Positions 1-63,245 of a stretch of 64,000 nucleotides of DNA are shown piece by piece. Numbering within the stretch: the first letter of the stretch is position 1; every line of letters begins with the position of its first letter. The notes under the pieces are model-generated. The model was given only the letters and a program-made list of their open reading frames with translations. It searched no databases and was not told the origin of the DNA. Origin of the DNA: a virus. Its lineage: Duplodnaviria > Caudoviricetes. Location of the stretch: IMG/VR virus record IMGVR_UViG_2603880214_000004, positions 1 through 64,000 of that record. One strand, given 5' to 3'. Position numbers and translations under genes: made by a program.

Positions 1-417
1 TTAAGAGTTTATTTTCTTGCGGCGGAACACTATTAACGAACCGATAAAAATAAGTCCAGCACTAACCGCCATCATAGTTACAGTGTTAGACGCTGTATTT
101 GGTAATTTAGTGCCTTGTTTATTATTAGAATTAATTGTTGTTTGGTTATTGGTATTAGTCTGGTTTTGCGCAGTTGCGTTGGTATCTAATGGGTATTTAG
201 TATCTTCACATGGAGTCCCATCGTTATCTTTATCTAACTGGTGTGGATCATTCCCCACTCCATAGCCATTTTGATTCCAGAAATTTTGCGCGTCTTTTTG
301 ACTTTTAAAGTCACTACAGTTTTTAGTGTCATTAGCACTTTTCGCTGCATAAACAGAAGAATTATAACCAACAAACAAAAATACAAAAGAAAATAGTAAA
401 ACTACTAACTTTTTCAT
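1..417 (-). CDS. Excalibur Ca-binding cell-wall-anchored protein (LPNTA sortase motif)
   Basis: Signal peptide; NCSDF...LDKDNDGTPCE Excalibur motif; LPNTA + hydrophobic helix + RRKK tail. Confidence 0.85.
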   Translation of the reverse strand: MKKLVVLLFSFVFLFVGYNSSVYAAKSANDTKNCSDFKSQKDAQNFWNQNGYGVGNDPHQLDKDNDGTPCEDTKYPLDTNATAQNQTNTNNQTTINSNNKQGTKLPNTASNTVTMMAVSAGLIFIGSLIVFRRKKINS

Positions 418-602
418 GATATTTCCCCTCTCCCTGGTATGTATTTACAATGAAATATTTTACATATTTCGTTCTGATAATTCAATCATATAAACAAAAA
501 GTAAGATTTCTTAACTAAGCATAACAAAAACAGTTACAACTATTTTGTCATATTTTGTCGAAGGAAAATAAAAAGCACTCATAAGAGTGCTTATCCATAA
601 AT

Positions 603-1112
603 CTAATGTTTTTTACTAGATTTTTTATGTCCTTTATTTCGTTCACAAGCCACGCCATCGCCATCACGATCTAGATGCGAAGCATAAGCTGGGCTATCTG
701 GAGTTATATCATAGTAACCAGCATTATTTGCATCTGTACAGTTTGCAAAGTGAACTTTCTCTTGTTTAGGTGCAGCTTGTTGCTGAGGTGCTGTATTAGC
801 TGTAACTTTTTGTTGTTCCTGTTCTTTTGCTCGAGCTGCTTCTTGTTGTTTCTTTTGTTCTTCCTGTTGTCTTTGAGCCTCTTCTTGTTTGCGTTGTTCA
901 TCTAATCGCTTTTGTTCTTCAGCCTTTTTTTGTTCCTCAGCTTGCTTTTGCTCTTCAGCCTTTTTCTGTTCTTCTAACTTCTTTTGTTCCTCTTCTTTTT
1001 TAGTTTCTTGTTTTGGTTCTTCTGATGTACTTGCTTTATCATTTGAACCACAAGCAGCCAATCCCATAAGTAACACGCTGCATGCTAAAGCCATTAACAA
1101 TTTTTTACTCAT
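603..1112 (-). CDS. Lipoprotein with coiled-coil linker and Excalibur domain
   Basis: Lipobox LAAC; EEQKK repeats; FANCTDA...LDRDGDGVACE. Confidence 0.85.
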   Translation of the reverse strand: MSKKLLMALACSVLLMGLAACGSNDKASTSEEPKQETKKEEEQKKLEEQKKAEEQKQAEEQKKAEEQKRLDEQRKQEEAQRQQEEQKKQQEAARAKEQEQQKVTANTAPQQQAAPKQEKVHFANCTDANNAGYYDITPDSPAYASHLDRDGDGVACERNKGHKKSSKKH

Positions 1113-1703: not shown

Positions 1704-2003
1704 ATCTAATCATTCCTCTCAAAAAAGAGTTTAAGGTTGTCCCATATATATTATGAAGGTTATATAAAAAGGTTCTAGTTTAAAAAGAGTAAATAAAAAA
1801 GAGAGCCGAAGCCCCCCACTGGTTAATTTTTTTAAACTTGATCTCTAACAAGTAAAAAATGTTGCTTCTATAATGAAATCAAATCACAATATATCTTTGT
1901 TGTTACGCAACACTTTTACATACAACGCTGGTTGTTTAGCAAATTGTAGCCTTTGCTGATGTCCATTTTTATAAAAGGAAAACCCATCAAGAACTAGATG
2001 GGT

Positions 2004-2501
2004 TTAATTTTCATACCAAGTTCCATTCACTTTTACTCGAACACGTTCTTGTTTCTTACATGACGTTAGTTTGTTATAGCTAAAATTACAAACTATATTG
2101 TAGATGCTGTCATAATTCCAAAAATACGCAGGGTGATTTTTTTTATAGTCTTTCCATTCATTACTATAGGTACCTTGGTTTTTTAAATCACCTTCTGTAC
2201 CGAACGCTGCTGCAACTTCTTCGTAGGACATACCTTGGCGTAAGCTGTTGAAAGCGTCAGTCATACGTTTCTGCTTAGCTTCTGCATTACGATTCTGTTC
2301 TTCTAGCTCTTCTAGTCTTTTTTCTTCTTTCGCTAGCTGTTTGGTTTGTTCCTTTTCCAGTTCTACTAGTTCTTTTTCGTAGTCGGCATGGACTTTTTCT
2401 CGTTCCTTTTCATATTTGTAATCTAAATACTTATTCCATCCCATAATCACAAGAGGGATTAAAATTAAACTACATATTATAACAATCAGCTTCTGCTTCA
2501 A
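2004..2501 (-). CDS. Membrane-anchored protein with coiled coil and BLIP/SmpA-like C-terminus
   Basis: N-terminal TM; LRQGMSYEEVAAAFG motif. Confidence 0.6.
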   Translation of the reverse strand: MKQKLIVIICSLILIPLVIMGWNKYLDYKYEKEREKVHADYEKELVELEKEQTKQLAKEEKRLEELEEQNRNAEAKQKRMTDAFNSLRQGMSYEEVAAAFGTEGDLKNQGTYSNEWKDYKKNHPAYFWNYDSIYNIVCNFSYNKLTSCKKQERVRVKVNGTWYEN

Positions 2502-3089
2502 ATCCCCATCCCCTTTAGTAACTATTTATATACATTTGATTATCCGATAAACCAGAATTCTTATTCGAAGAGGTTGAATTATCCGTAACTATCACTTCTT
2601 TCTTTTATGGTTGAGGACTTACCACTTAAAACAATGTAAGATTTCCGAATCATCATAACAGAATTGGTTAAACCTATTTCGTCATATTATGTCGAAGAGT
2701 AATAATAAAGACACCTTAAGGTGGTTTTCTTCAACTTGTAAATCCCATTTTTCTTTTGTTACTGTTTTCATATTAAATTCTTTATTCAATCATGTTAAAA
2801 ATGGACTGAATACCTTTTTAAAGGGTTCTTTATAGAACTCATCAATGTAGTCAATGTTTAATCAGTTAATATATGATTAGATTTTTAGATTAAATATTAT
2901 TAACTATTAATCAATATATATTATTTTAAAATTATATGTATATAAAGAATTTAATCTATCAGAATAACCTTATATCATCCAATTATTCTTATAAAGAAAA
3001 TTTATAATTATTTAAAAATAACAAAATAGTAAAAAAATGTATTAGTTAAATTAAATTGTAAATACTGTTGTGGAAGGAGGTGAAAGAAG

Positions 3090-3314
3090 ATGAATGGAAG
3101 AGTTGTTGGAAAACTAAGTATCAATGGAAAAGGGTTACTTTTAGTTGAAGGTGACCTACAAACTCAGGCACGTTTTTTTGGTATTCCAGGTACTGAAAGT
3201 ATTCCTACGGCACCAATTACTGGTGCAATTGGTGGTGTAATTGGTGGACCTGTAGGAGCGGCAATTGGAACAACCGCTGGGGAGATTATTGATGCTAATA
3301 TTAAACTTTTTTGA
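3090..3314 (+). CDS. Small glycine-zipper peptide (74 aa)
   Basis: Strong RBS AAGGAGGTG; GAIGGVIGGPVGAAIG zipper. Confidence 0.8.
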   Translation: MNGRVVGKLSINGKGLLLVEGDLQTQARFFGIPGTESIPTAPITGAIGGVIGGPVGAAIGTTAGEIIDANIKLF

Positions 3315-3471
3315 TGATGTTAAGTTCAGAGTAAGGCTATTGTAATCGAAGAATAAGCTACAAATAGTTGGATGTCTATAGAAGCTCTATAGATATAATT
3401 TAAGTGTTTTTTTATAAGTGGACAGAAATGATTTTCTGTCCACTTTATAAATTAGTAATAGGAGGAGTAAA

Positions 3472-4344
3472 GTGAAGAAATTAGCGTTAATTACAGGTAT
3501 AAATTATCGAGGCAGTAAATATGAGTTAGGGGGCTGTATAAACGATGCATCAATGATCTTAAATACGCTAGTTAAAAAATTTGATTTTAATCAGTCTAAT
3601 ATACAATTACTTATTGAGGAAGTAGCGACTAAAAAAAATATTCTCAAAGGACTGGAATGGCTAGTTAATCAACTAGAACCTGGGGATATTGGATTATTTA
3701 CATACTCGGGACACGGAACACAGACAGCGGATTTGCCACCAATTGATGAGGAAGATATGTTGGATGAAGCTATTGTACCCATCGATGCACTTGCTGACCA
3801 ATCTAATCTTATTAGAGATGATGAAATTAATACAATACTATCTAACATACCTAAAGGTGTAAAATTTGTGGTTATTTTGGATAGTTGTCATTCTGGAACT
3901 GGTACAAGGAACTTTGGTAATTATTATTCTATTCCGCAAGCGCGAACTATTGAGGATGTAAAAGCAATAATTAATAGTTTTAATAACGTTGAAAGAAGAG
4001 ATTTATCAAGTATTAAACCTCGTTACATTCCTCCAACCCAAACCATTCAAGACATAAAAATGATTATGAGTGGTTTTGAACCTATTAGAAAAGACTTTTC
4101 ATCTTTTTCAGGACCGAATCATATTTTATTAGCAGGATGTAAAGCAGATCAAGTATCATATGATGAAGGTACATATGGCCGTTTTACTAAAGCATTAACT
4201 GACGTGATGGGAAGCCAAAGTGCAATCACTTATAAAGAGTTATATTTCTTAGTAAGAAATATGGTTTTAGAGCGCTCAAATTACGCTCAAGAACCTCAAT
4301 TAGAGGGACCTGATGATTTAATAAACTTACAAATTTTCGAATAG
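3472..4344 (+). CDS. Caspase-family (peptidase C14, metacaspase-like) protease
   Basis: GCINDA, YSGHG (catalytic His), LDSCHSG (catalytic Cys), QEPQLEG. Confidence 0.92.
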   Translation: MKKLALITGINYRGSKYELGGCINDASMILNTLVKKFDFNQSNIQLLIEEVATKKNILKGLEWLVNQLEPGDIGLFTYSGHGTQTADLPPIDEEDMLDEAIVPIDALADQSNLIRDDEINTILSNIPKGVKFVVILDSCHSGTGTRNFGNYYSIPQARTIEDVKAIINSFNNVERRDLSSIKPRYIPPTQTIQDIKMIMSGFEPIRKDFSSFSGPNHILLAGCKADQVSYDEGTYGRFTKALTDVMGSQSAITYKELYFLVRNMVLERSNYAQEPQLEGPDDLINLQIFE

Positions 4345-4691
4345 TTGTATTTTAATGTATGTTCATTTTATGTGCATACATAAATAATAAAAAGATGGTT
4401 TGTATTAAAGCCATTTATCTAAAAAAGCTCTCAATTAGAGAGCTTTTCTCTTTAGTTAAATATTAATCATAACGAACTTATTCCATCATCTAGTATAGAC
4501 TATGATACATTGGAGGAATGCCAAATCCCAAAGATGGCTCATAAAATTAATTATTTAAAGATTACTTAAAGCTAATAAAACCCCATTTACGTATGATAGG
4601 GTTCACCGCGCCACCCTCAACAGAAAACCGTTAATTTAAAAGAGTATATAGACCGTCTCTAATATGATTTTATACTTATTATAAATTATTT

Positions 4692-5990
4692 CTATTCCAC
4701 CTTATTTAATAAACTCTTACCTCTGTTCCAATGATTATCTAAATATGTATTCCATAGATCAATATGTCTTATTGAATCCTGTTTAACAAAACGATTGTTA
4801 ACTAGCCTTATGAAATAAGGAGATCTACATAATAATTTTGATACCGCTACTTTAAAATTTATATATTGTTTTGTGTTAGGTCCTGATGAAAAATCTTCAT
4901 TATAATCCTTATACAGCTCTATCCCCGCATGTACAAATTCTGATCTCCAAGTATAAATTTGACTTATTAATGAACTAAATTCATTCTTATCCATGACATC
5001 CCAATTAACCAAACAAGGGAATAATACACGTAATCTGTCTCGCTTAGAATCTTTATGTTTTAATAGAATATTTTCACTAGCAATTGTTAACAACAATAAA
5101 GGTGTTCCTAATCCTTGAGTTATATCATTACTATTTTCAACCTCTATAGCTCTTTTAAAAAAATTTATACCGTTCAAAAATTTTTGGGAGACCGGGTTAT
5201 GAGTTTTCATAACCATTTCTTGATATATTAGATCCAATAACTTTATATATTTCTTTTCTAGGAGCCAGTCTAAGTTTATAAAACAATTTGCATTAAAATT
5301 AAGCGGTGCGTTGTTGAATTCATATTCTGTAGTACCACATGTTAAGAGAATATTAATATGTTCATTTTGATGTATATTACTGAAAAGAGGTAATTTGTAT
5401 TTAGGATACACATTCCCCCAGTATATAGCATGTAAAATAGAATTTGTATAAAGTCCTATATGTCTTGCCCTATAAAAAACATAACTATATTGATGTTTTA
5501 CTCTAATAGCTACTAATGGATGTTGTAAAAAAGAAGATGATTTTCTCTCAATATGCTGCATTCTTGTTTTCGTTTCATTCAATGACACTTTAAATATTTT
5601 TTTTAATGTATTTAATTTTTCATTTCTATCCCCTGAAATGAAAATAAAATCTTTATACTTTACTGTTTTTGAAAGAAATGCTCCTTTTAAAGGGAAAATG
5701 ATCCATCTTTCTTTGATATTTATATAAAGATTTTCATATATATATTCTAAAAATTGATCTGCATCTTGATCACTATAGTTTGTTTGCTGTTGTATGTGTA
5801 TATCTTCGAGATACGAATTAATTATACTTTCTGCTATTTCAACTTCAAAAATAGCACTAAATCTAGGGTGTTCATATATTTTTTCTAATAAAGTTTTCAA
5901 GGGCTTATCACTATGCATATCTACATCCCATTTGTTATTCCTATTACAGTAATATAATGCAGCCTTAGCAAATCGTCTTAATGATTCCAA
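4692..5990 (-). CDS. HEPN-domain (ApeA-like) putative antiphage RNase
   Basis: C-terminal IASENIL...IYTWRSEFVHAG with RxxxxH motif; low GC; stand-alone gene. Confidence 0.7.
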   Translation of the reverse strand: MESLRRFAKAALYYCNRNNKWDVDMHSDKPLKTLLEKIYEHPRFSAIFEVEIAESIINSYLEDIHIQQQTNYSDQDADQFLEYIYENLYINIKERWIIFPLKGAFLSKTVKYKDFIFISGDRNEKLNTLKKIFKVSLNETKTRMQHIERKSSSFLQHPLVAIRVKHQYSYVFYRARHIGLYTNSILHAIYWGNVYPKYKLPLFSNIHQNEHINILLTCGTTEYEFNNAPLNFNANCFINLDWLLEKKYIKLLDLIYQEMVMKTHNPVSQKFLNGINFFKRAIEVENSNDITQGLGTPLLLLTIASENILLKHKDSKRDRLRVLFPCLVNWDVMDKNEFSSLISQIYTWRSEFVHAGIELYKDYNEDFSSGPNTKQYINFKVAVSKLLCRSPYFIRLVNNRFVKQDSIRHIDLWNTYLDNHWNRGKSLLNKVE

Positions 5991-7550: not shown

Positions 7551-8339
7551 TTAATTGTTGAAGTATTCATCTTGAATACGTTGAGAATATATCGCCCCTA
7601 CTTCTTCAAAAATTGATAATAACTCATCATATGTATTCTCATCATCACCAATTTTGTTCCATAATTCAGCTCCAATAAGTACACATGGGTCATAATCCAT
7701 CTCAAAAAGCGCAAAAGGAAGTTTATGTGATTGACTACGATACAAATTTCCTTCTCCCGCTGGATTATAAGGTAATCCAAAATAAGCTTCATATCCTTGA
7801 TCGCTTGCAATTAACCTGAACATATTTTTCTTGGCAAGTTCAGTTTGATCTAAATTAGGTTTTACAGTTTTGAAACTATAGAATTCTTCTGTACCATCTG
7901 TTCTCCGAATATATAAATCACTTTTTACTAAGAAATTTTGTGTTATTGGGTTATTTAAAGCTAAAATCTCTGTAACTTCCTCTTCCCAATTAGGTAAACG
8001 ATTCCTAGAACGTTGTTCTCTTAAGATGGTATCAATTTGTTCAGAACGCCATGTATTTATGGTAACCTCTTGATCATATTGATTTTCTGCAAAAGCGCCA
8101 GCTCCTTCTGCAATGATTTTTCCTATTTGTTCAAAAATGCGTTGCCCCAATGTTGTAACAAAACTTCTTTCAAATTTAGATCCTTTCCAGACTTGACTTG
8201 GGACTAGATGAAAACCAAAAGGGTTTTTTGAAGCAATCTCAGTTTGGTTGAATGGTTCTTTTACAGTTCTTTTATGAATTAGTTTCTCCATAACTTCTGC
8301 TAAATGGTTTTTAATCTGCTGCTTCGTATGTTCATTCAT
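7551..8339 (-). CDS. Type II restriction endonuclease, TdeIII-like
   Basis: FERSFVTTLG, SDLYI..FKTVKPNLDQ, LPYNP; downstream of a C5 MTase. Confidence 0.75.
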   Translation of the reverse strand: MNEHTKQQIKNHLAEVMEKLIHKRTVKEPFNQTEIASKNPFGFHLVPSQVWKGSKFERSFVTTLGQRIFEQIGKIIAEGAGAFAENQYDQEVTINTWRSEQIDTILREQRSRNRLPNWEEEVTEILALNNPITQNFLVKSDLYIRRTDGTEEFYSFKTVKPNLDQTELAKKNMFRLIASDQGYEAYFGLPYNPAGEGNLYRSQSHKLPFALFEMDYDPCVLIGAELWNKIGDDENTYDELLSIFEEVGAIYSQRIQDEYFNN

Positions 8340-8407
8340 TAGATTTTGCTCCTTTAGGATAAATTTACCTACAAGGTCTATTATAAAATAAAAAACATAG
8401 GAAGGAC

Positions 8408-9502
8408 CTATGTTTTTAAAGTTTTTAAGATTGCTCGTCCCATAACTTCTGCTAAACGGACAGGGACAGCATTACCTATTTGAGTATATTGCTTGCCAAG
8501 TGTACCTTTAACTATATAATCTTTTGGAAATTCTTGAATTGCTAAATATTCTTGTATACTTAATGCACGATCTTCATAAGGATGTCCTAAATTCGTACTT
8601 TTTTGTGTTGGTGAAGTCAATACTGTTGGAGATGGCTTATTTACATTTACTCGACGAAAGAAACCTACTTTACCACCACCACTTGTGTAAGCTCCCCCCA
8701 TAGCTTCTTTTACAACATCTTCAGGGAGATCCCGCCAATTTCCACCACCCAGAGGAATCATTTGCATATACTTTAATCTATCCTCAGAATACTCTTGATA
8801 ATTATGTTCTTCAACTTTTAAATTTTCTAACACTTGCCCAACCGTTCTCCAAGGTAAAAGACCATTATTTCCATTCTTATTATGAGTCGGTGTTGGAAAA
8901 ATAAAATCTCGATTTAAATCTTCCCTAATTCCAACAATAAAAACACGTTCGCGAGCCTGTGGAACGCCAAAATCTGCGGAATTTACTAAAGTTGGTGTCG
9001 CGATGTTGTATCCTTCAAATCGGTTAAGTAAAAAGCGCAACGCACTGCCCTTAGTTTCTTCCTCTGTTAAAGGTGGAAAACCTTCTCCTTTTTCTTTTAA
9101 CGGGCGATTTTTTAATGGTGAAGATAAAAGCCCTTTTACATTTTCAATTAAAAATGCTTTAGGTTGTAATTCATGTATTAAATCAACAAATTTTAACATT
9201 GCTTGTCCTCTAGGATCATTAAAAGCCTGTCTTTTCCCGGCTGTACTAAAACTTTGACACGGGCTTCCACCAAATAATAAATCAATTTCTTCACTTTCTC
9301 CGAGGTTAGCATCTTCTCTAACACGAGAAGCATTATATTCCATTATATCCCCTTGTTTAATATTCCAATTAGGATTGTTAATTTTTAACGTTTCACAATA
9401 AACAGTTTCAAGTTCAACTGATAATTTAACATCAAAACCAGCACGATGAATCCCTAAATCTAATCCACCAGCACCAGCAAAAAATGATATTGCTATTGCC
9501 AT
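8408..9502 (-). CDS. DNA (cytosine-5) methyltransferase of the R-M system
   Basis: FAGAGG, GSPCQSFS, ENV, QARER, QIGNAV motifs. Confidence 0.95.
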   Translation of the reverse strand: MAIAISFFAGAGGLDLGIHRAGFDVKLSVELETVYCETLKINNPNWNIKQGDIMEYNASRVREDANLGESEEIDLLFGGSPCQSFSTAGKRQAFNDPRGQAMLKFVDLIHELQPKAFLIENVKGLLSSPLKNRPLKEKGEGFPPLTEEETKGSALRFLLNRFEGYNIATPTLVNSADFGVPQARERVFIVGIREDLNRDFIFPTPTHNKNGNNGLLPWRTVGQVLENLKVEEHNYQEYSEDRLKYMQMIPLGGGNWRDLPEDVVKEAMGGAYTSGGGKVGFFRRVNVNKPSPTVLTSPTQKSTNLGHPYEDRALSIQEYLAIQEFPKDYIVKGTLGKQYTQIGNAVPVRLAEVMGRAILKTLKT

Positions 9503-9897
9503 AATAAACACCTCTTAATAATCAATAAAAATACTATAACATGTTTTAATTTATCGGTCCACTAGTTTATTTATATGGATAATTTTAACACTTTAAATTT
9601 AATAACAATCTTTTTATTAAAGTATTATTCAAAATTAAAAACATTATCATCATAAAGGAAAAAAGAAGAAGTATTGTAATATGATAACTATTCATATGTT
9701 TATTTACTTCTTATAAGATAATGTTATCATTCATTCTTAAGCTTTTTTCCATTTAGATGTTATTTCTTTTTTGAAAAGGATGTTATACCTTTTTATAACT
9801 ACTTAATACGTATTAAAAGGTATAATGTGCACATTACCTAAAAAAACACCCAAAGGTGCCCTGAATCATGTTATTTTGAAATAATTATATTATTTAT

Positions 9898-13961: not shown

Positions 13962-14310
13962 ACAGAAAGATGCACTATTGCATACCTTTATCCTTAAGTG
14001 TGAGAAAGCCTTGATATATAGCTATTTTCAAACTTTCTCAACATTTTTCTGATAACCACACGACTGAATTTTGGCAAAAATATGATATTATGAAAATAAT
14101 AAAATAAACGGACGTAAAAAAGACTCACAGCGTGTATAAGTAGTGCGCTAACACTCTTACACCGCTTTCCCTAATCGCACTAGGGAAAACACTTACTGCA
14201 AGTCTTACACAAATTATAACACATCTTTTGAATGTAGTGACGCGTTTTCCTTTGAAAGTTAAAAAATGGGTATAACGTGTCTTTTGTTCCGAAAAAAGGG
14301 GAGCAAAGTT

Positions 14311-15438
14311 ATGCAAAGTGTTTTAAATAGAATAAACGATGATCTGTATGCACAAAAAATAAGTAACAGACAGTTATCTACAATGCTAGATATAAGTCAC
14401 ACAACCACTAATGCTATGTTATCAAACAAGAGGGAGTTTGATTTTGTTCATTTTGTTAGGGTATTACAAATGCTTTACCCTAATGATGTTAATTTACGAA
14501 GAGAATGTTTGAGAGGATTTATAAATAAAATCTCTCCTAAAAATGTAAGATTAGGAATGGAATTTTTAAATTTATATGGTGAACTTGATTTGCAAAATAT
14601 TTTAGTTGAAAAATCTAACCAATCTTCAAATCGAGTAAATAAACAATTAGCTGAAGTATATGAATTATTGCTTCGTAGAAGTGACGAAACAATTACAAGG
14701 AAAGATTTTCACCAAGAGGTCGAGAAAAAAAGAAAAGAAAAGAAAATTACCAGTAATGAACTACGTATAGTTTCTGATTTCGCGCTAATTTATTCATTCT
14801 TGGACTATAAAAATTATCAAATGGTATTAAAATACACAAAAGAATTAAGAACTTACATCGATGAAATTAAGAATAGGTCGTTATCTCACTCTTTCTTGAT
14901 AAGAGCCAGAGAAATGGAAGCAACAACTAACCATCGAACTAATAATATAGAAGATGCTCGTATGTTGTGCCAAAAGATAATTAATGATCAAGAGAATATC
15001 TATATTGGTACAATAGCTAATGCTTATTGTATTTTAGCGGAAACGTATTCTTTTACAAATTTTAAGATAGCGAAAATGCTCTTAGAAAGAGGTATTAGAC
15101 TACTTCATAACCCAACCAATAAGAAGCTAATAATTAGAAGAGCTGTTTTAGAAAACACTCTTGATTTTTTACGTCTGCATTGGGGAGAAGAGTTAGATTT
15201 GGTGAAACCGCACCATGCAGCAGAATTAGCCTTTCTATACATTAAAAGCAACCGTAAACGTGAAGCTATTGCGATTTTGGATAAAATTAAAAGGGAAAAT
15301 GGTTCATTGTCACCTATGCAAGAATACTATATGGGATTGGCGACAGGTAATAAAAAACACTTCGAAATTTCTATAGAAAAATTTGAAAAAACAGGAGATT
15401 TTTTCTATATTTCACTCCCTAAATATGCCTTGAAATGA
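14311..15438 (+). CDS. aimR: AimR-family arbitrium receptor (HTH + TPR)
   Basis: N-terminal HTH, TPR-like helices, followed by a secreted peptide gene and next to cI. Confidence 0.85.
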   Translation: MQSVLNRINDDLYAQKISNRQLSTMLDISHTTTNAMLSNKREFDFVHFVRVLQMLYPNDVNLRRECLRGFINKISPKNVRLGMEFLNLYGELDLQNILVEKSNQSSNRVNKQLAEVYELLLRRSDETITRKDFHQEVEKKRKEKKITSNELRIVSDFALIYSFLDYKNYQMVLKYTKELRTYIDEIKNRSLSHSFLIRAREMEATTNHRTNNIEDARMLCQKIINDQENIYIGTIANAYCILAETYSFTNFKIAKMLLERGIRLLHNPTNKKLIIRRAVLENTLDFLRLHWGEELDLVKPHHAAELAFLYIKSNRKREAIAILDKIKRENGSLSPMQEYYMGLATGNKKHFEISIEKFEKTGDFFYISLPKYALK

Positions 15439-15940: not shown

Positions 15941-16300
15941 CTATTTATCATCTTCTATATCTAATCCAGAAATTAACGCTTTTATCTTCTTAATAGCGAA
16001 TTCTTTAGTTTCTTCATCAAATGTTTCTACACGATTTATATAATGTTTTAGTTCTAACATAACATCTGATGATGAAGAATTTTCGTTAGTTTTATTATCT
16101 GATAATCCCATAATATAGTCGGTAGATATGTTTGCTAAATTAGAAATTTTAGAAACGGTTTCTCTAGAGGGGGTCTTTTTACCTGATTCCATAAAAGAAA
16201 CCATCGGTTTACTAATATCTACACTATCTGCAAACTGTTGCTGTGTATATCCGAGCGACATCCTTATCTCTTTTATTCTTTTCCCAATTATATTCTCCAT
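15941..16300 (-). CDS. CI-like XRE repressor
   Basis: IGKRIKEIR..YTQQQFA HTH; start moved to the ATG with RBS AAGGGGAG. Confidence 0.88.
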   Translation of the reverse strand: MENIIGKRIKEIRMSLGYTQQQFADSVDISKPMVSFMESGKKTPSRETVSKISNLANISTDYIMGLSDNKTNENSSSSDVMLELKHYINRVETFDEETKEFAIKKIKALISGLDIEDDK

Positions 16301-16357
16301 AATGCTCCCCTTTTTTATTACCTTAGTATTACCTGATACATAAAATATAACAGAAAA

Positions 16358-16719
16358 GTTGACTCTAAGACAACTTAGTTTTTTAAAACCGATTTTTAAA
16401 AAACGTTGTTGACTTGTAGTTAACAAATTGGTATTATGAAGACATCGAAAGAAATAAGGGTGGTGCTAATGACAAAACTTAATGCAGATCGTGCTAAAGA
16501 ATTAAGGAAGTCACTAGGTTATACACAGCAATTCGTAGCTGATTACCTATGTTGTTCTAAAAGTGGTATTTGTTATATGGAAAAAGGTAAAAGGCAACCG
16601 AGTCTAGAGAAATTAGGTAAATTATCAATATTATATAGAGTGACGACTGATGAATTATTAGAGTAAAGTTAACCCTAGGTTGTCGTTTTTTTGAAAATAT
16701 AAGTTAACCTATAGTTAAC
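16358..16719. promoter_or_regulatory. Four operator-like 17-bp inverted repeats (GTTRAC-N5-GTTAAC-like)
   Basis: 16358 gttgactctaagacaac; 16408 gttgacttgtagttaac; 16668 gttaaccctaggttgtc; 16703 gttaacctatagttaac. Confidence 0.75.
16469..16666 (+). CDS. Cro-like HTH protein
   Basis: Divergent from cI; XRE HTH. Confidence 0.85.
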   Translation: MTKLNADRAKELRKSLGYTQQFVADYLCCSKSGICYMEKGKRQPSLEKLGKLSILYRVTTDELLE

Positions 16720-18336: not shown

Positions 18337-18969
18337 ATGATAACTGAAAATTACTTTTCTAAATTGGCTCAAATAGATTGTTCGGGACATGTTGAGAAGA
18401 AAGGGCGTTTTAACTACTTATCATGGGCGTGGGCGGTTAAAAAGCTTCGTGAAGTAGATCCAACAGCCACATGGGAAGTAAAACGATTTGATGGAGTGCC
18501 TTACCTCAAAACAGGTTGTGGTTACTTTGTAGAAGTTGAAGTAACTGTACAAGGAATACCACTAAGTCAGATTCACCCGATACTTAACAATCAGAACAAG
18601 CCGATTGCAGAGCCTAATAGTTTTGACATTAACACAAGTATCCAACGTTGCTTAGTAAAGGCAATTGCACTTCACGGATTAGGATTGTACATCTATGCAG
18701 GTGAAGATTTACCAGAGATCCAAGAGGAAATGATTACTGCTCAACAAGTTGGTGCAATTAAATTAAACATAAAAAAATTAGCTACCCTTCGAAAAGTGGA
18801 TGAAGACACGATTAAAGGATACTTAGGTATTAAAGAGGTTGGCGAATTGACATTAAAACAAGCTGGAGAAGTACTTAAGAAATTAACAAAGTGGGTTAAA
18901 CAGGCTGAAAAAGAAACTTCTGAAACTGAAGAGCAAGAACAAGTAGAAAAAGTAGAACAAACAAACTAA
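18337..18969 (+). CDS. Sak-like (DUF1071, Rad52-like) ssDNA annealing protein
   Basis: YLSWAWA, SIQRCLVKAIALHGLGLYIYAGEDLP. Confidence 0.85.
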   Translation: MITENYFSKLAQIDCSGHVEKKGRFNYLSWAWAVKKLREVDPTATWEVKRFDGVPYLKTGCGYFVEVEVTVQGIPLSQIHPILNNQNKPIAEPNSFDINTSIQRCLVKAIALHGLGLYIYAGEDLPEIQEEMITAQQVGAIKLNIKKLATLRKVDEDTIKGYLGIKEVGELTLKQAGEVLKKLTKWVKQAEKETSETEEQEQVEKVEQTN

Positions 18970-52363: not shown

Positions 52364-52558
52364 ATGTTAACTACATTTATTTCTTTAGGAGTTTTAGGAG
52401 CAACAACAATTGGTGGAGCAATATTAGAGAAACATCTTGTAAAGAATGAACACGTTGCGGCAGCTAAACTTTTAAGTGAGGGAATGTATCACGGAATGAG
52501 GATAGGCGGAGTTTGTTTCATCGGTTATGTATTTATCAAAATCTTAATCATGTTCTAG
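52364..52558 (+). CDS. Small membrane protein
   Basis: RBS AAGGGGAG; two TMs. Confidence 0.65.
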   Translation: MLTTFISLGVLGATTIGGAILEKHLVKNEHVAAAKLLSEGMYHGMRIGGVCFIGYVFIKILIMF

Positions 52559-52569
52559 GAGGATGTGAA

Positions 52570-53736
52570 ATGGGGATCATCAAAGAATGGATTCATAAAC
52601 AAAATTTAAAGAACCAACTTATAGAAGTATTCGGAAAAGCAGGGTTATTTGTGGACCATCAAACACGGGGTGGGAAAGTGCCAATTTATCCAAAGATACA
52701 CAACATTTCCGCCACAAAAGAGAGCGTTAGATATATATTTACCATTCCGAACGGTCTAGATCCGAAGACAATTGAAAAGAAATGGTTTTGCTTTCAACAA
52801 ATACTAGGACGGAATGTAGCAATTGAAGGGGATATCAAAAAGTTTGTACTTAATGTGTTTCATTCTGATGCAGGGCTAAAACCATACAATTACAGTTATA
52901 AGAAATGGCAGCCGTTACTAAAACAGCATCGTCTACCTGTTGTGGTAGGTCGTGACCAATTCGGAAACATGATTGTATATGACATGGTTGAAGCGAATGC
53001 ACCGCATTTACTCATTGCAGGAGAAACAGGAAGTGGTAAAAGTAGTATGGTACGCGTTGTCCTGTCCACACTGATTCAAAGCATGTCTCCTGATAAATTA
53101 CATTTGTACCTGGGTGACTTAAAAAACTCTGAATTTCATTTCTTGAGGAGAGTAAAACACGTAAAAGAGGTTTGCATGGAAGAAATCGAAATGAAGATTA
53201 TGTTGCAGAAAGTGTGGAAGGAAATACGCGAACGTAGAAAATTGATGGAAGAGTATGAAGTGGATCATATTGATGAATATAACAAATTGAATCCTGATAA
53301 TCAGAAACCATACATTTTATTAGCAAGTGATGAAGTGGCCATGTTGCAAGACGAAAAGGAATGTATGTCTACAATTGAAAAGATATCGGCAGTTGGCAGG
53401 GCACTTGGAGTCTTCCTTATGCTTTCTATGCAACGTCCTGACGCAAAAGTATTAGATGGTAAGTTAAAGCTGAATATGACCGTTAGAATGGGCTTTAAAT
53501 GCGATAGTACGATTAACAGTAATATCATGGGTACACCTGGTTCAGAACACTTGGAGCAATCGGGCCAAATGATATTGAAATTAAATGGATTAAAGAAAGT
53601 GCAAGCTCCTTATTTAGAATTAAGCAAAGCGAAACAAATCGTTGAACCTTATCGGATTCCCAAAGAGGATACAAAGCTTCAGAATCCTCCACAAGAAAAG
53701 AACCAATTATTCGGGGTGTTAGATTATGAAGAATAG
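52570..53736 (+). CDS. FtsK/SpoIIIE-family ATPase
   Basis: PHLLIAGETGSGKS, DE, GRALG, QRP. Confidence 0.92.
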   Translation: MGIIKEWIHKQNLKNQLIEVFGKAGLFVDHQTRGGKVPIYPKIHNISATKESVRYIFTIPNGLDPKTIEKKWFCFQQILGRNVAIEGDIKKFVLNVFHSDAGLKPYNYSYKKWQPLLKQHRLPVVVGRDQFGNMIVYDMVEANAPHLLIAGETGSGKSSMVRVVLSTLIQSMSPDKLHLYLGDLKNSEFHFLRRVKHVKEVCMEEIEMKIMLQKVWKEIRERRKLMEEYEVDHIDEYNKLNPDNQKPYILLASDEVAMLQDEKECMSTIEKISAVGRALGVFLMLSMQRPDAKVLDGKLKLNMTVRMGFKCDSTINSNIMGTPGSEHLEQSGQMILKLNGLKKVQAPYLELSKAKQIVEPYRIPKEDTKLQNPPQEKNQLFGVLDYEE

Positions 53737-54691: not shown

Positions 54692-55540
54692 GTGGGAGAT
54701 ATTAAAGTTACTCCAGAGGAATTAAGAAATAGAGCAAAAACTTTTAAATATGCTAGTGCTGAAGCAACCGATCGTCATAATAGAATTCTTTCAGAAGTGT
54801 TTAATCTTCAAATGAGATGGATAGGAGCTTCTAGTTTAACTTTTTATAATGATTTGCCTCGATTTAATAAGTCTTATGAAGAGTATGTTCAATGTTTGAA
54901 CCATATTGAAAGTGAATTGGAACGCATAGCAGAAAAATTTGAACAGGCAGATAATCATTATATATTTAAAGATGCAGGCGCAGTGATTGGCGATTCAATA
55001 AAAGATAATAGTCCTTTTGCTCAAGTTTTAAATTATAATACAGATATAACACTCCCTAAGAATGCAAAGACTTTTTTTGATGATGTAAATGGATATGATA
55101 AGATAGGTGGAGAGGCTAAAGGGGCAGTTATAGATGCTGGATTTAAGGTTGGAGATTTTACTATACATGAACAACTTCTTAGAGGTGAGGTTAAGGCGCA
55201 ATTTGGCGGAGGAATAGGTGGAGAAGCTAAAGCTGGAGTAACTTTTAATGATTTTGGAGTAGATCATGAAGATGGAAAAGTCCATGTGAAAGTTGGGAAT
55301 GCTGAAGCTGGTGTTGAGGCTAAAGATGGTCATGTTGGCATTGGAGCTAAAGCAGATTTAATTAAAGGGGAAGCTGAAGTTAAAATTCCTATTCCTTTTA
55401 TTGATGATTGGAAGATAGTGGTTGGTGGAGAGGCAGCTTATGGTAGTATAGGCGGGGAAGCCAAACTGGGATTAATGAACGAGCTTGATGTTGGTTTTGG
55501 AATAGGATTAGGTGTAAAATTTGGAGTTGAAAAAGACTAA
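54692..55540 (+). CDS. WXG100-domain putative T7SS effector with Gly-rich C-terminus
   Basis: IKVTPEELR..WIG..AEKFEQAD; GGEAKAGV-type repeats. Confidence 0.8.
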   Translation: MGDIKVTPEELRNRAKTFKYASAEATDRHNRILSEVFNLQMRWIGASSLTFYNDLPRFNKSYEEYVQCLNHIESELERIAEKFEQADNHYIFKDAGAVIGDSIKDNSPFAQVLNYNTDITLPKNAKTFFDDVNGYDKIGGEAKGAVIDAGFKVGDFTIHEQLLRGEVKAQFGGGIGGEAKAGVTFNDFGVDHEDGKVHVKVGNAEAGVEAKDGHVGIGAKADLIKGEAEVKIPIPFIDDWKIVVGGEAAYGSIGGEAKLGLMNELDVGFGIGLGVKFGVEKD

Positions 55541-62396: not shown

Positions 62397-63218
62397 TTAC
62401 ACACCAACCTTCATTTTTTCGAACATATCAATACGAGATAATAATTCATCACTAATCGTTTCGTATAGTTCAATTACATTCATATCATGTCTATCTTTTT
62501 CAGTAATACCATTCACATCAAATCGTTTAATACGTTCCATTTGAGGGACGATGTTTTTGAATAGGTTTTCTTCACCGAAAATTTCACGAGCGTTTTCCAT
62601 GATATACTCGTCAACCTTACCGTTGTTTTTTAATAGGACAGGAAGAACGCCAACTACTTCAATATCAAGATCATATTGTTCCTTTAACTTGATAAGCTCA
62701 TTAATATAGTTCTCAGCGCCAGTAAGAGAACGTTCTTGTGTTTGTAGTGCAATTAGAACATAATCCGAAGCTACAACTGCATTTTTTGTAACTTCTAGTG
62801 ACATAGGAGGAACGTCAATAAATATGTAGTCGTATTTATGCTTTATCTTTTCAAGTAATCCTTTAAAGTAATGATCTTCTTCAGCTTCTGAAGAACAATT
62901 TTTATAAAGGAATTTTGCGAAGTCCTGAAAATCAACATAAGAAGGAAGTAAATGTAAGTTCTCCATAATTTCCACTTCTAAGCCGTCTAGGTTTCCCTCT
63001 TGTATACCTTTCATTAATGTTTTTTCAACAGTAACGATTTCATCAGGGTTAAGGATTGATTTTGTTAACATTAAAGACTTTGTTGCGTTACTTTGTGGGT
63101 CAAGATCAACAAGTAATGTACGCTTGCCCTTTTTAGCAAATTCATAAGAGTTCAATACAGCATTTGTGGTTTTACCGACTCCACCTTTGTAATTACCTAC
63201 CGTAATTGTAATAGCCAT
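62397..63218 (-). CDS. parA: ParA/Soj ATPase (type Ib partition)
   Basis: KGGVGKTT, DLDPQSN, IDVPP. Confidence 0.95.
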   Translation of the reverse strand: MAITITVGNYKGGVGKTTNAVLNSYEFAKKGKRTLLVDLDPQSNATKSLMLTKSILNPDEIVTVEKTLMKGIQEGNLDGLEVEIMENLHLLPSYVDFQDFAKFLYKNCSSEAEEDHYFKGLLEKIKHKYDYIFIDVPPMSLEVTKNAVVASDYVLIALQTQERSLTGAENYINELIKLKEQYDLDIEVVGVLPVLLKNNGKVDEYIMENAREIFGEENLFKNIVPQMERIKRFDVNGITEKDRHDMNVIELYETISDELLSRIDMFEKMKVGV

Positions 63219-63245
63219 TTTTAACACTCCAGTTATAGTTTTTGA

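Follow-up and report, generated by a model that had tools for sequence, protein, structure and literature searches.

A short-peptide gene paired with a stand-alone metacaspase-type protease on Bacillus cereus-group mobile elements, a candidate protease-propeptide module

The closest described counterpart of the locus reported here is the EACC1-caspase pair, a two-gene conflict system predicted in 2020 by Kaur et al. (PMC7159879). According to a 2025 preprint by Evans et al. (PMC12642450), a caspase-Avs12 fusion cuts EACC1 once, at Asp49, the C-terminal fragment alone is toxic, and cleaved EACC1 causes liposomes to leak; the same preprint describes Pepco, a pre-assembled β-barrel of 117 amino acids (aa) that is activated when its C-terminal tail is removed after an Ile. 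The plant enzyme AtMC4 is reported to cut PROPEP1 at Arg69 upon Ca2+ influx (0.4-0.8 mM Ca2+; bioRxiv 10.1101/2020.03.09.983940), and MaOC1, an Arg/Lys-specific prokaryotic caspase homologue, to cleave the antitoxin of a ParE/ParD pair, with the result that growth is inhibited (PMC7935541). The locus that we describe is a two-gene unit, a gene for a 74-aa peptide followed on the same strand by a gene for a 290-aa metacaspase-type protease, and it lies in the first 64 kb (the window; 64,000 nucleotides [nt]) of a 72,872-base provirus record in IMG/VR (IMGVR_UViG_2603880214_000004). By analogy with the systems above, the best reading of the unit is as a variant among protease-activated small-effector modules. 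The logic of such a module is known; what would be new is the peptide family, the predicted Arg-specific and sensor-less enzyme, a layout in which a conserved N-terminal “handle” precedes interchangeable cargo, and the host range. The initial annotation of this DNA had not recognized the pairing as a described system, and for the family itself this stands, since our literature search found neither family nor pairing described, with the proviso that the supplements of PMC12642450 and the source data of PMC7159879 may list further protease-associated small proteins. As an arrangement, however, the pairing has a precedent in EACC1-caspase.

The unit is made up of the following features.

3074-3082, plus strand: Shine-Dalgarno sequence of the peptide gene, AAGGAGGTG, read in the sequence 7 nt 5′ of the ATG at 3090
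3090-3314, plus strand: peptide gene, 74 aa, an open reading frame (ORF) with a strong Shine-Dalgarno sequence
3090-3173, plus strand: N-terminal module of the peptide, residues 1-28, conserved in five of five family members
3174-3314, plus strand: C-terminal part of the peptide, residues 29-74 and the stop codon, recognized by its GxxxG motifs and Gly content
3412-3450, plus strand: intergenic hairpin, recognized by its folding energy relative to shuffles and by a stem kept in the plasmid of Bacillus sp. ZJS3
3460-3467, plus strand: Shine-Dalgarno sequence of the protease gene, AGGAGGAG, read in the sequence 4 nt 5′ of the GTG at 3472
3472-4344, plus strand: metacaspase-type C14 protease, 290 aa, with a GTG start codon, a Pfam PF00656 match and a strong Shine-Dalgarno sequence
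4423-4447, plus strand: terminator-like hairpin at the 3′ end of the unit, called in a consensus scan (10-bp stem, then a T-rich tail)

The 74-aa ORF, the strong hairpin and the intact C14 protease gene had all been picked out in the initial annotation, and each was confirmed as described, coordinates included, as was the division of the peptide into a 28-aa leader ending in TQAR and a 46-aa GxxxG zipper. A spacer of 158 nt separates the two genes, and the hairpin within it has a folding energy of -21.6 kcal/mol, compared with a shuffle mean of -9.6 (z = -5.25; none of 200 shuffles was as stable). The ZJS3 plasmid has an equivalent hairpin with the GTGGACA/TGTCCAC stem and another loop (-19.2 kcal/mol, z = -4.18), and the stem is kept between the last peptide gene and the caspase gene at both loci for which we had the DNA in hand. 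The GTGGACA/TGTCCAC motif has one match in the window and none in 100 shuffles. A consensus terminator scan did not call the 3412-3450 hairpin, no promoter-like site was called between it and the caspase gene, and the protease start codon lies 21 nt past it. This hairpin is probably a leaky terminator or attenuator; the hairpin at 4423-4447 closes the two-gene unit.

The two parts of the peptide differ in character. Residues 1-28 are basic (+2) and end in TQAR, and a β-hairpin with strands at residues 4-11 and 14-20 was predicted by AlphaFold2 from a four-sequence alignment, with a predicted local distance difference test score (pLDDT) of 65-71. Residues 29-74 hold six overlapping GxxxG motifs and 22% Gly and have a net charge of -2. 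The peptide contains five Arg/Lys residues, at positions 4, 8, 14, 28 and 72, with none across residues 29-71, and R28 is therefore the sole basic residue separating hairpin from zipper. The C terminus is a short hydrophobic-Asp-hydrophobic tail, which is also found in two of the relatives described below, the ZJS3 B-type and B. toyonensis peptides, and neither a signal peptide nor a double-glycine leader is visible in the sequence. The peptide matched no Pfam, NCBIfam, PADLOC or PHROG family, the only sub-threshold Pfam match being C19orf12. When it was used as a query against an index of 5.8 billion proteins it found only itself; phmmer against 1.84 billion representatives returned the peptide and four giant Gly-rich proteins, which we took as low-complexity matches; an alignment scan of viral contigs gave no match; and tblastn against plasmids found ZJS3 alone (E value [E] of 0.03).

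The ZJS3 locus, on a 457-kb plasmid, carries a caspase gene whose product is 57% identical to that of the window, preceded by ORFs of 60 and 53 aa (peptides A and B, 285 and 70 nt upstream of the caspase gene), and a third peptide gene, C, lies ~0.86 kb downstream of the caspase gene on the opposite strand. A hidden Markov model (HMM) of the leader alone matched the three ZJS3 peptides with E of 7e-21, 2.1e-16 and 7.7e-9. A profile search added a 65-aa peptide from Bacillus toyonensis and also found a near-identical twin of the 53-aa (B-type) peptide in Bacillus cereus group sp. N12. The family thus defined consists of five distinct peptides of 48 to 74 aa, two of which have a near-identical twin; it is known only from Bacillus cereus-group mobile elements and was previously unannotated. 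An Arg closes the conserved N-terminal module in all five members, at position 27, 28 or 36, so that conservation of R28, which had been proposed as a check on the initial annotation, was found at the module boundary throughout. Beyond the Arg come a glycine zipper (three members), a Cys-rich 20-mer (one) or a 17-mer (one). The N-terminal modules carry charges of 0 to +3 and the C-terminal parts charges of 0 to -5.

Starting from the peptide, its linkage to the caspase clade is complete: all five members of known context lie <0.9 kb from a caspase gene of this clade, at three independent loci. At the B. toyonensis locus, the peptide and a 292-aa caspase have consecutive GenBank protein accessions and both are listed with a longest contig of 5,803 bases, from which we read the two genes as adjacent; P0011, which belongs to the same 90% cluster as the B. 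toyonensis caspase, is 71% identical to the window caspase. The arrangement of a 5′ small gene and a 3′ caspase gene on one strand was seen directly in the window and in ZJS3 and is deduced for B. toyonensis. Order and strand are kept at the three loci, with the caspases at 57 to 71% identity and the peptides at about 40 to 50%. The pairing of peptide and protease is not due to chance.

To place the family among caspase loci at large, we ran its HMMs on 187 other caspase-bearing loci (80 genome, 3 plasmid, 24 viral and 80 metagenome), of which the ZJS3 locus alone scored. The caspase clade is itself rare, occurring in 2 of the best 80 loci from 185,579 species representatives, and a caspase search around Bacillus songklensis found it in 1 of 22 genomes of the family and 1 of 401 genomes of the order Bacillales, the centre genome itself both times. 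Single-sequence caspase scans of genome contigs and of viral contigs gave no match. The peptide profile, which recovered all three ZJS3 peptides, had no matches in 70 scored genomes from the genus of a Nhe-positive Bacillus. A general link between glycine-zipper ORFs and caspase genes was also considered and rejected: 33 of 8,885 small ORFs in the 187 loci have at least two GxxxGxxxG motifs, only the ZJS3 peptide gene among them is upstream of the caspase gene on the same strand and within 500 nt, and the others are antisense or GC-rich artefacts. A suggested resemblance between a 63-aa ORF upstream of one close caspase gene (locus L086) and the C-terminal extensions of P0035, P0038 and P0039 was dropped, the ORF and P0038 giving no BLASTP alignment.

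Judged by sequence and by modelled fold, the protease is a genuine metacaspase-type enzyme (MEROPS C14B), and the intact C14 metacaspase of the initial annotation is borne out, with Yca1, AtMC4 and AtMC9 as its nearest solved relatives on both counts. Pfam Peptidase_C14 (PF00656) matches the protein with an E of 6.3e-34 over profile positions 1-224 of 233, and the PADLOC model named “caspase” matches it with an E of 2.5e-19. It can be divided into a p20-like part (residues 1-143), a linker of ~65 residues (~144-210) and a p10-like part (211-290). All 30 aligned homologues keep the catalytic residues, H81 within GHG and C139 within DSCHS. By phmmer, the p20 part aligns with Yca1 (4f6o; E of 3.4e-31) and AtMC4 (E of 6.5e-27), together with AtMC9 and TbMCA2. 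An AlphaFold2 model built with the 30 homologues has a mean pLDDT of 88.3, falling below 50 only at residues 144-153, and a Foldseek search of the PDB with this model ranked AtMC4 first (6w8r; E of 1.2e-21, query template-modelling score of 0.73), followed by AtMC9 (E of ~1e-21), Yca1 and TbMCA2; model and search agree on the caspase-haemoglobinase fold expected of C14B metacaspases. The caspase domain spans the 290-aa protein end to end, the N terminus being the first strand of the fold, with no signal peptide and no sensor or effector domain.

Metacaspases cut after Arg or Lys, and the same specificity is expected of this protease from its family. D25 and D137 likewise do not vary across the 30 aligned sequences, and they match positions in the p20 region of metacaspases; they are candidates for the acidic S1-pocket residues that, as in TbMCA2, would underlie Arg/Lys specificity. 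A further acidic stretch, residues 91-99, is nearly invariant among the 30 homologues and aligns with Yca1 and AtMC4. The aligned region of AtMC4 holds the 96-EDDD-99 loop, which is reported to be required for Ca2+-dependent substrate cleavage (bioRxiv 10.1101/2020.03.09.983940), making Ca2+ control of the bacterial protease plausible.

The tripeptide QAR, which had been noted as common to peptide and protease, is indeed present in both, at peptide residues 26-28 and at caspase residues 156-158 (SIPQAR, in the linker between the p20- and p10-like parts), but it carries little weight, being unconserved and near chance level. QAR turned up in 42 of 2000 shuffles of the caspase, and the linker site, within a variable insert, shows AR in the nearest relatives, with E, T or K in its place in others; in the closest full-length relative the caspase reads SIPRAR and its own peptide ends in ANR. 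Far better conserved is a basic site ~26 residues after QAR (KPR, then an aromatic residue and a Pro pair; R184), which is a candidate autoprocessing site. In the nearest relatives, the R184 site and the peptide boundary appear alike in having an Arg followed by an aromatic residue.

How does the unit compare with the described systems? Like EACC1-caspase, as that system is reported, it has a small non-enzymatic gene 5′ of a gene for a caspase-superfamily protease, and its small protein joins β elements to a hydrophobic segment in which small residues or glycine abound. A further likeness would lie in the mechanism that we propose, where one cut leaves an N-terminal fragment that is harmless and a C-terminal fragment that forms pores and is toxic. 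In sequence the two are distinct. Pfam EACC1 (PF19953) matched nothing anywhere in the record, even at E up to 10. When the peptide family was compared by hhalign with 24 EACC1 domains, which came from 20 of 301 actinobacterial genomes, the probability was 0.06%. On NF047832, the NCBIfam model of EACC1-associated caspases, for which the cut-off is 140 bits, the protease scored 28.3 and 22.1. The peptides are 48 to 74 aa long, compared with ~107 profile positions for EACC1, and the elements are ordered differently, the β-hairpin lying N-terminal to the glycine-rich segment in the peptide and C-terminal to it in EACC1. The predicted cut follows an Arg, whereas the tested EACC1 was reported to be cut at Asp49. 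Moreover, the enzyme is a bare 290-aa metacaspase, whereas the partners of EACC1 typically have sensor or effector fusions, and the setting is Bacillus mobile elements rather than actinobacteria.

With AtMC4 and PROPEP1, as far as that pair is described, the unit has in common a metacaspase-type enzyme with a putative acidic L5-type loop and, in our proposal, a small precursor that would be cut after one Arg to free its C-terminal peptide; the trigger in the plant is Ca2+ entry after membrane damage. The plant product, however, is an extracellular danger signal read by a receptor and not a membrane toxin, the plant genes are unlinked, and the bacterial enzyme, with its ~65-residue linker, lacks the long type II linker. 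Pepco/Trypco and the bacterial gasdermins, so far as reported, share with the proposal a small latent pore former whose gene neighbours that of a protease and which cleavage at a specific site unlocks, but gasdermins are proteins of ~250 aa and not a 74-aa peptide, and the peptide has no Pfam (E up to 0.1) or PADLOC match that would place it with either. MaOC1 would be alike as a prokaryotic Arg/Lys-specific caspase homologue acting on a small protein encoded next to it; its reported substrate is the antitoxin of a separate enzyme toxin, whereas the unit has no separate toxin gene.

The reading that we favour, tentatively and with slightly less than even confidence, is that the Arg/Lys-specific protease cuts after R28 and so frees a membrane-active peptide. 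The initial annotation had proposed a cut at QAR|F releasing a pore-forming peptide, for abortive infection or as a bacteriocin, and comparison supports that proposal in part. On our model, drawn from sequence features and from the analogies above, the unit would be a protease-propeptide module that phages and plasmids of the Bacillus cereus group carry as accessory cargo. As made, the 74-aa peptide would be latent, with residues 1-28 forming a basic β-hairpin handle, R28 a single cleavage point and residues 29-74 an acidic glycine zipper, and the intergenic hairpin would keep peptide transcripts in excess over protease transcripts. The stand-alone metacaspase, probably Ca2+ responsive, would recognize the handle and cut after R28, and the freed glycine-zipper peptide would then insert from the inside into the membrane of the producing cell and permeabilize it, killing the cell or arresting its growth, an outcome of the kind seen in abortive infection or in element maintenance. 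Ca2+ entry is favoured as the trigger because the enzyme has no sensor, by analogy with AtMC4/PROPEP1. A bolder extension, which we consider unlikely, takes that analogy further and makes the unit a sensor-less, Ca2+-gated death or alarm module like the plant PROPEP-metacaspase pair, in which the handle is a portable tag that addresses interchangeable cargo to the protease. Membrane damage or phage attack would admit Ca2+ and switch on the metacaspase, the 28-aa handle would be recognized, and every cargo would be cut after one Arg. Glycine-zipper pore formers and a Cys-rich peptide would be among the cargo, and so, possibly, would the tail of a 654-aa hemopexin-like protein that is described below. 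So understood, the handle would establish a new family of peptides that are activated by a protease and carried on Bacillus phages and plasmids.

Several observations weigh against release of a membrane-active peptide by the protease. The family is tiny, so that its conservation rests on few independent events, and two of its five members have no glycine zipper. The zipper of the window peptide is acidic and just moderately hydrophobic, with a value of 1.44 on the Kyte-Doolittle scale for its most hydrophobic 19-residue window, and past the β-hairpin AlphaFold2 gave no confident structure, the zipper part having a pLDDT of ~40. In no sequence test did the peptide resemble EACC1, and the protease has no sensor domain to point to a trigger. 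Finally, the co-occurrence that the initial annotation had offered as a check runs in one direction only: every peptide of known context has its caspase, but among the six other evaluable close caspase loci (at least 45% identity) just one, ZJS3, has a family peptide. The five without one are those of B. songklensis (L003), of a Paenibacillus (L004) and of B. thuringiensis pH3-101 (L084) and the loci L085 and L086; the region upstream of the pH3-101 caspase gene holds a single gene, on the opposite strand, for a winged helix-turn-helix protein of 59 aa, and we saw no family peptide there. A further locus, L115, was left out of this count because it offers just 64 nt of upstream DNA, and some 40 other close caspases are represented by protein records alone. 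The family is also absent near all 181 remaining, more distant caspase loci. Lack of the peptide neighbour in homologous caspases, which had been named as a finding that would count against the proposal, is therefore partly what we see, as most close caspases are without a peptide. Since the peptide is absent at most caspase loci, the protease does not depend on this peptide.

The same features can be explained in other ways. The peptides might be bacteriocin-like or RiPP-like (ribosomally synthesized and posttranslationally modified peptide) precursors, with the metacaspase as their leader peptidase and the mature peptides acting on other cells after release by phage lysis or through an unlinked exporter. 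A conserved leader with a variable core, three cores at one plasmid locus (one of them Cys rich, its gene directly upstream of that of a second cysteine peptidase, of the C92/YiiX type), and a hairpin that follows the precursor gene, as would suit a structural gene succeeded by its processing enzyme, all agree with this. In an Atlas feature search the peptide had among its neighbours one glycine-zipper cluster, at 0.84, and one cluster of Blp class II bacteriocins, at 0.78; with scores below 0.9 they are to be taken only as leads. Extrapolating from AtMC4, a protease that needs high Ca2+ would work outside the cell. Neither peptide nor protease has a signal peptide, however, and the peptide has no double-glycine leader and no NCBIfam or Pfam match to class II bacteriocin or RiPP precursor families; no ABC exporter, immunity or modification gene was found at positions 1 to 9.5 kb of the window or at the ZJS3 locus. 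Most membrane-active bacteriocins are cationic, unlike these acidic cores. Precursors of this kind seem to us a doubtful explanation of the family. Somewhat more doubtful still is that the peptide regulates the protease, as a pseudo-substrate, an antitoxin-like inhibitor or a bait that is consumed, the protease then being the effector on cellular or phage proteins. It is the N-terminal module and not the zipper that is conserved, the B-type members have little beyond the module, the protease has no other regulatory domain, and the excess of peptide transcript implied by the hairpin would suit an inhibitor; MaOC1, for its part, is reported to control a neighbouring toxin-antitoxin pair by cleaving the antitoxin (PMC7935541). 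An essential inhibitor is nevertheless hard to fit with close caspases that often have no peptide, and the recurrence of zippers in three of five members despite their divergence suggests selection on the zipper part.

Both of these explanations, like the one that we favour, assume a functional tie. The two genes could instead be neighbours by descent on a mobile element. The peptide family is confined to a few related elements, most caspases of the clade have no peptide, and the intergenic hairpin could be a plain terminator dividing two transcription units. This would have to be reconciled with the three loci, at which order and strand are kept although the caspases are only 57 to 71% identical and the peptides about 40 to 50%, and which sit in unrelated settings, for the window a phage, for ZJS3 a plasmid of 457 kb; it would also have to allow for a protease gene that starts 21 nt after the hairpin with no promoter-like site called in between. 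Mere adjacency is thus unlikely because of three diverged loci and a conserved intergenic hairpin, and we consider it very improbable.

Several arrangements at related loci resemble parts of the unit, the hemopexin-like tail and the trypsin-like protease below being weaker leads. In ZJS3 (5038-5911 of locus L083, minus strand) the gene of the Cys-rich family member lies directly upstream of a gene for a C92/YiiX permuted papain-like peptidase, and on pH3-101 a C92/YiiX-type peptidase gene, the same as at ZJS3, follows the caspase gene; the handle may serve more than one cysteine peptidase. Also on pH3-101, 3 kb from the caspase gene, is a gene for a 654-aa hemopexin-like protein (3050-5014 of L195) with a tail like the B-type peptide (E of 3e-4 within the pH3-101 record), consisting of a hairpin module, a basic residue and then a hydrophobic-Asp-Leu-Phe end. 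A 95%-identical hemopexin-like homologue on B. paramycoides p1 (6680-8455 of L196), with several peptidase genes around it, stops before the tail. In Paenibacillus senegalimassiliensis (2745-3980 of L004) a gene for a 411-aa trypsin-like protease (Trypsin_2, E of 7.2e-25), whose C-terminal segments are hydrophobic and rich in Gly/Ala, stops 20 nt short of that of a 51%-identical caspase, and this pair may be a two-protease cascade or include a different latent effector. The caspase of B. songklensis has an N-terminal extension with PVQQF-type repeats in place of a separate peptide, and in that genome the caspase gene is divergent from a gene resembling radical SAM/SPASM peptide maturases (1705-3198, minus strand, and 3776-4816, plus strand, of L003).

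The record is that of a temperate Bacillus phage, which is possibly plasmid-borne. It encodes the arbitrium protein AimR (14266-15438, plus strand; Pfam E of 4.3e-50), a repressor (15941-16426, minus strand), a Sak-type annealase (18337-18969) and a ParA-type ATPase (62397-63227, minus strand); no integrase was found among the scanned ORFs and no tRNA genes were found, and the element may be a B. cereus-group prophage of the plasmid type. The caspase unit lies in the accessory arm, to the left of AimR, a placement typical of defence and addiction modules and as such circumstantial evidence. Large or conjugative Bacillus plasmids carry the other loci of the family, with genes for patatin, matrixin and peptidases around them. 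Two further features of this arm were recorded.

4692-5990, minus strand: gene for a 432-aa protein, convergent to the caspase unit, with no Pfam, PADLOC or PHROG match
7551-9511, minus strand: type II restriction-modification pair, RE_TdeIII (E of 2.2e-60) and a DNA_methylase of the C5 cytosine type (E of 2.7e-62)

The translation of the 432-aa protein has an R-x4-H motif near its C terminus. In an Atlas feature search its best clusters were unnamed (0.96), and the nearest named ones carried HEPN_Apea or ApeA_NTD1 (0.89-0.90) on 15 to 33% of their members, so that the protein may be an ApeA-like HEPN abortive-infection RNase, which we give as a lead only. Elsewhere in the window, a 282-aa protein with an N-terminal WXG100 domain (54692-55540, plus strand) and an FtsK/SpoIIIE ATPase (52513-53736, plus strand) look like a type VII secretion-style substrate and motor. 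At the left end (1-1112, minus strand), the translations show two exported proteins with Excalibur-like Ca2+-binding motifs (DxDxDG...CE), of which one is anchored in the membrane by its C terminus and the other, a lipoprotein, contains a long repeat rich in Glu, Lys and Gln.

In bacterial immunity, a main logic now emerging is that of small pore formers gated by proteases, EACC1, Pepco and gasdermin among them; the described families are mostly actinobacterial, cyanobacterial and proteobacterial, with proteases fused to large sensors. If the reading that we favour is true, this logic reaches the phages and plasmids of Firmicutes in its smallest form yet, 74 plus 290 aa and sensor-less, with a true metacaspase that would cut after Arg. 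If Ca2+ triggers the sensor-less caspase, plant damage signalling would have a close parallel in this module, which is small enough to be reconstituted completely and whose handle-plus-cargo design is directly testable.

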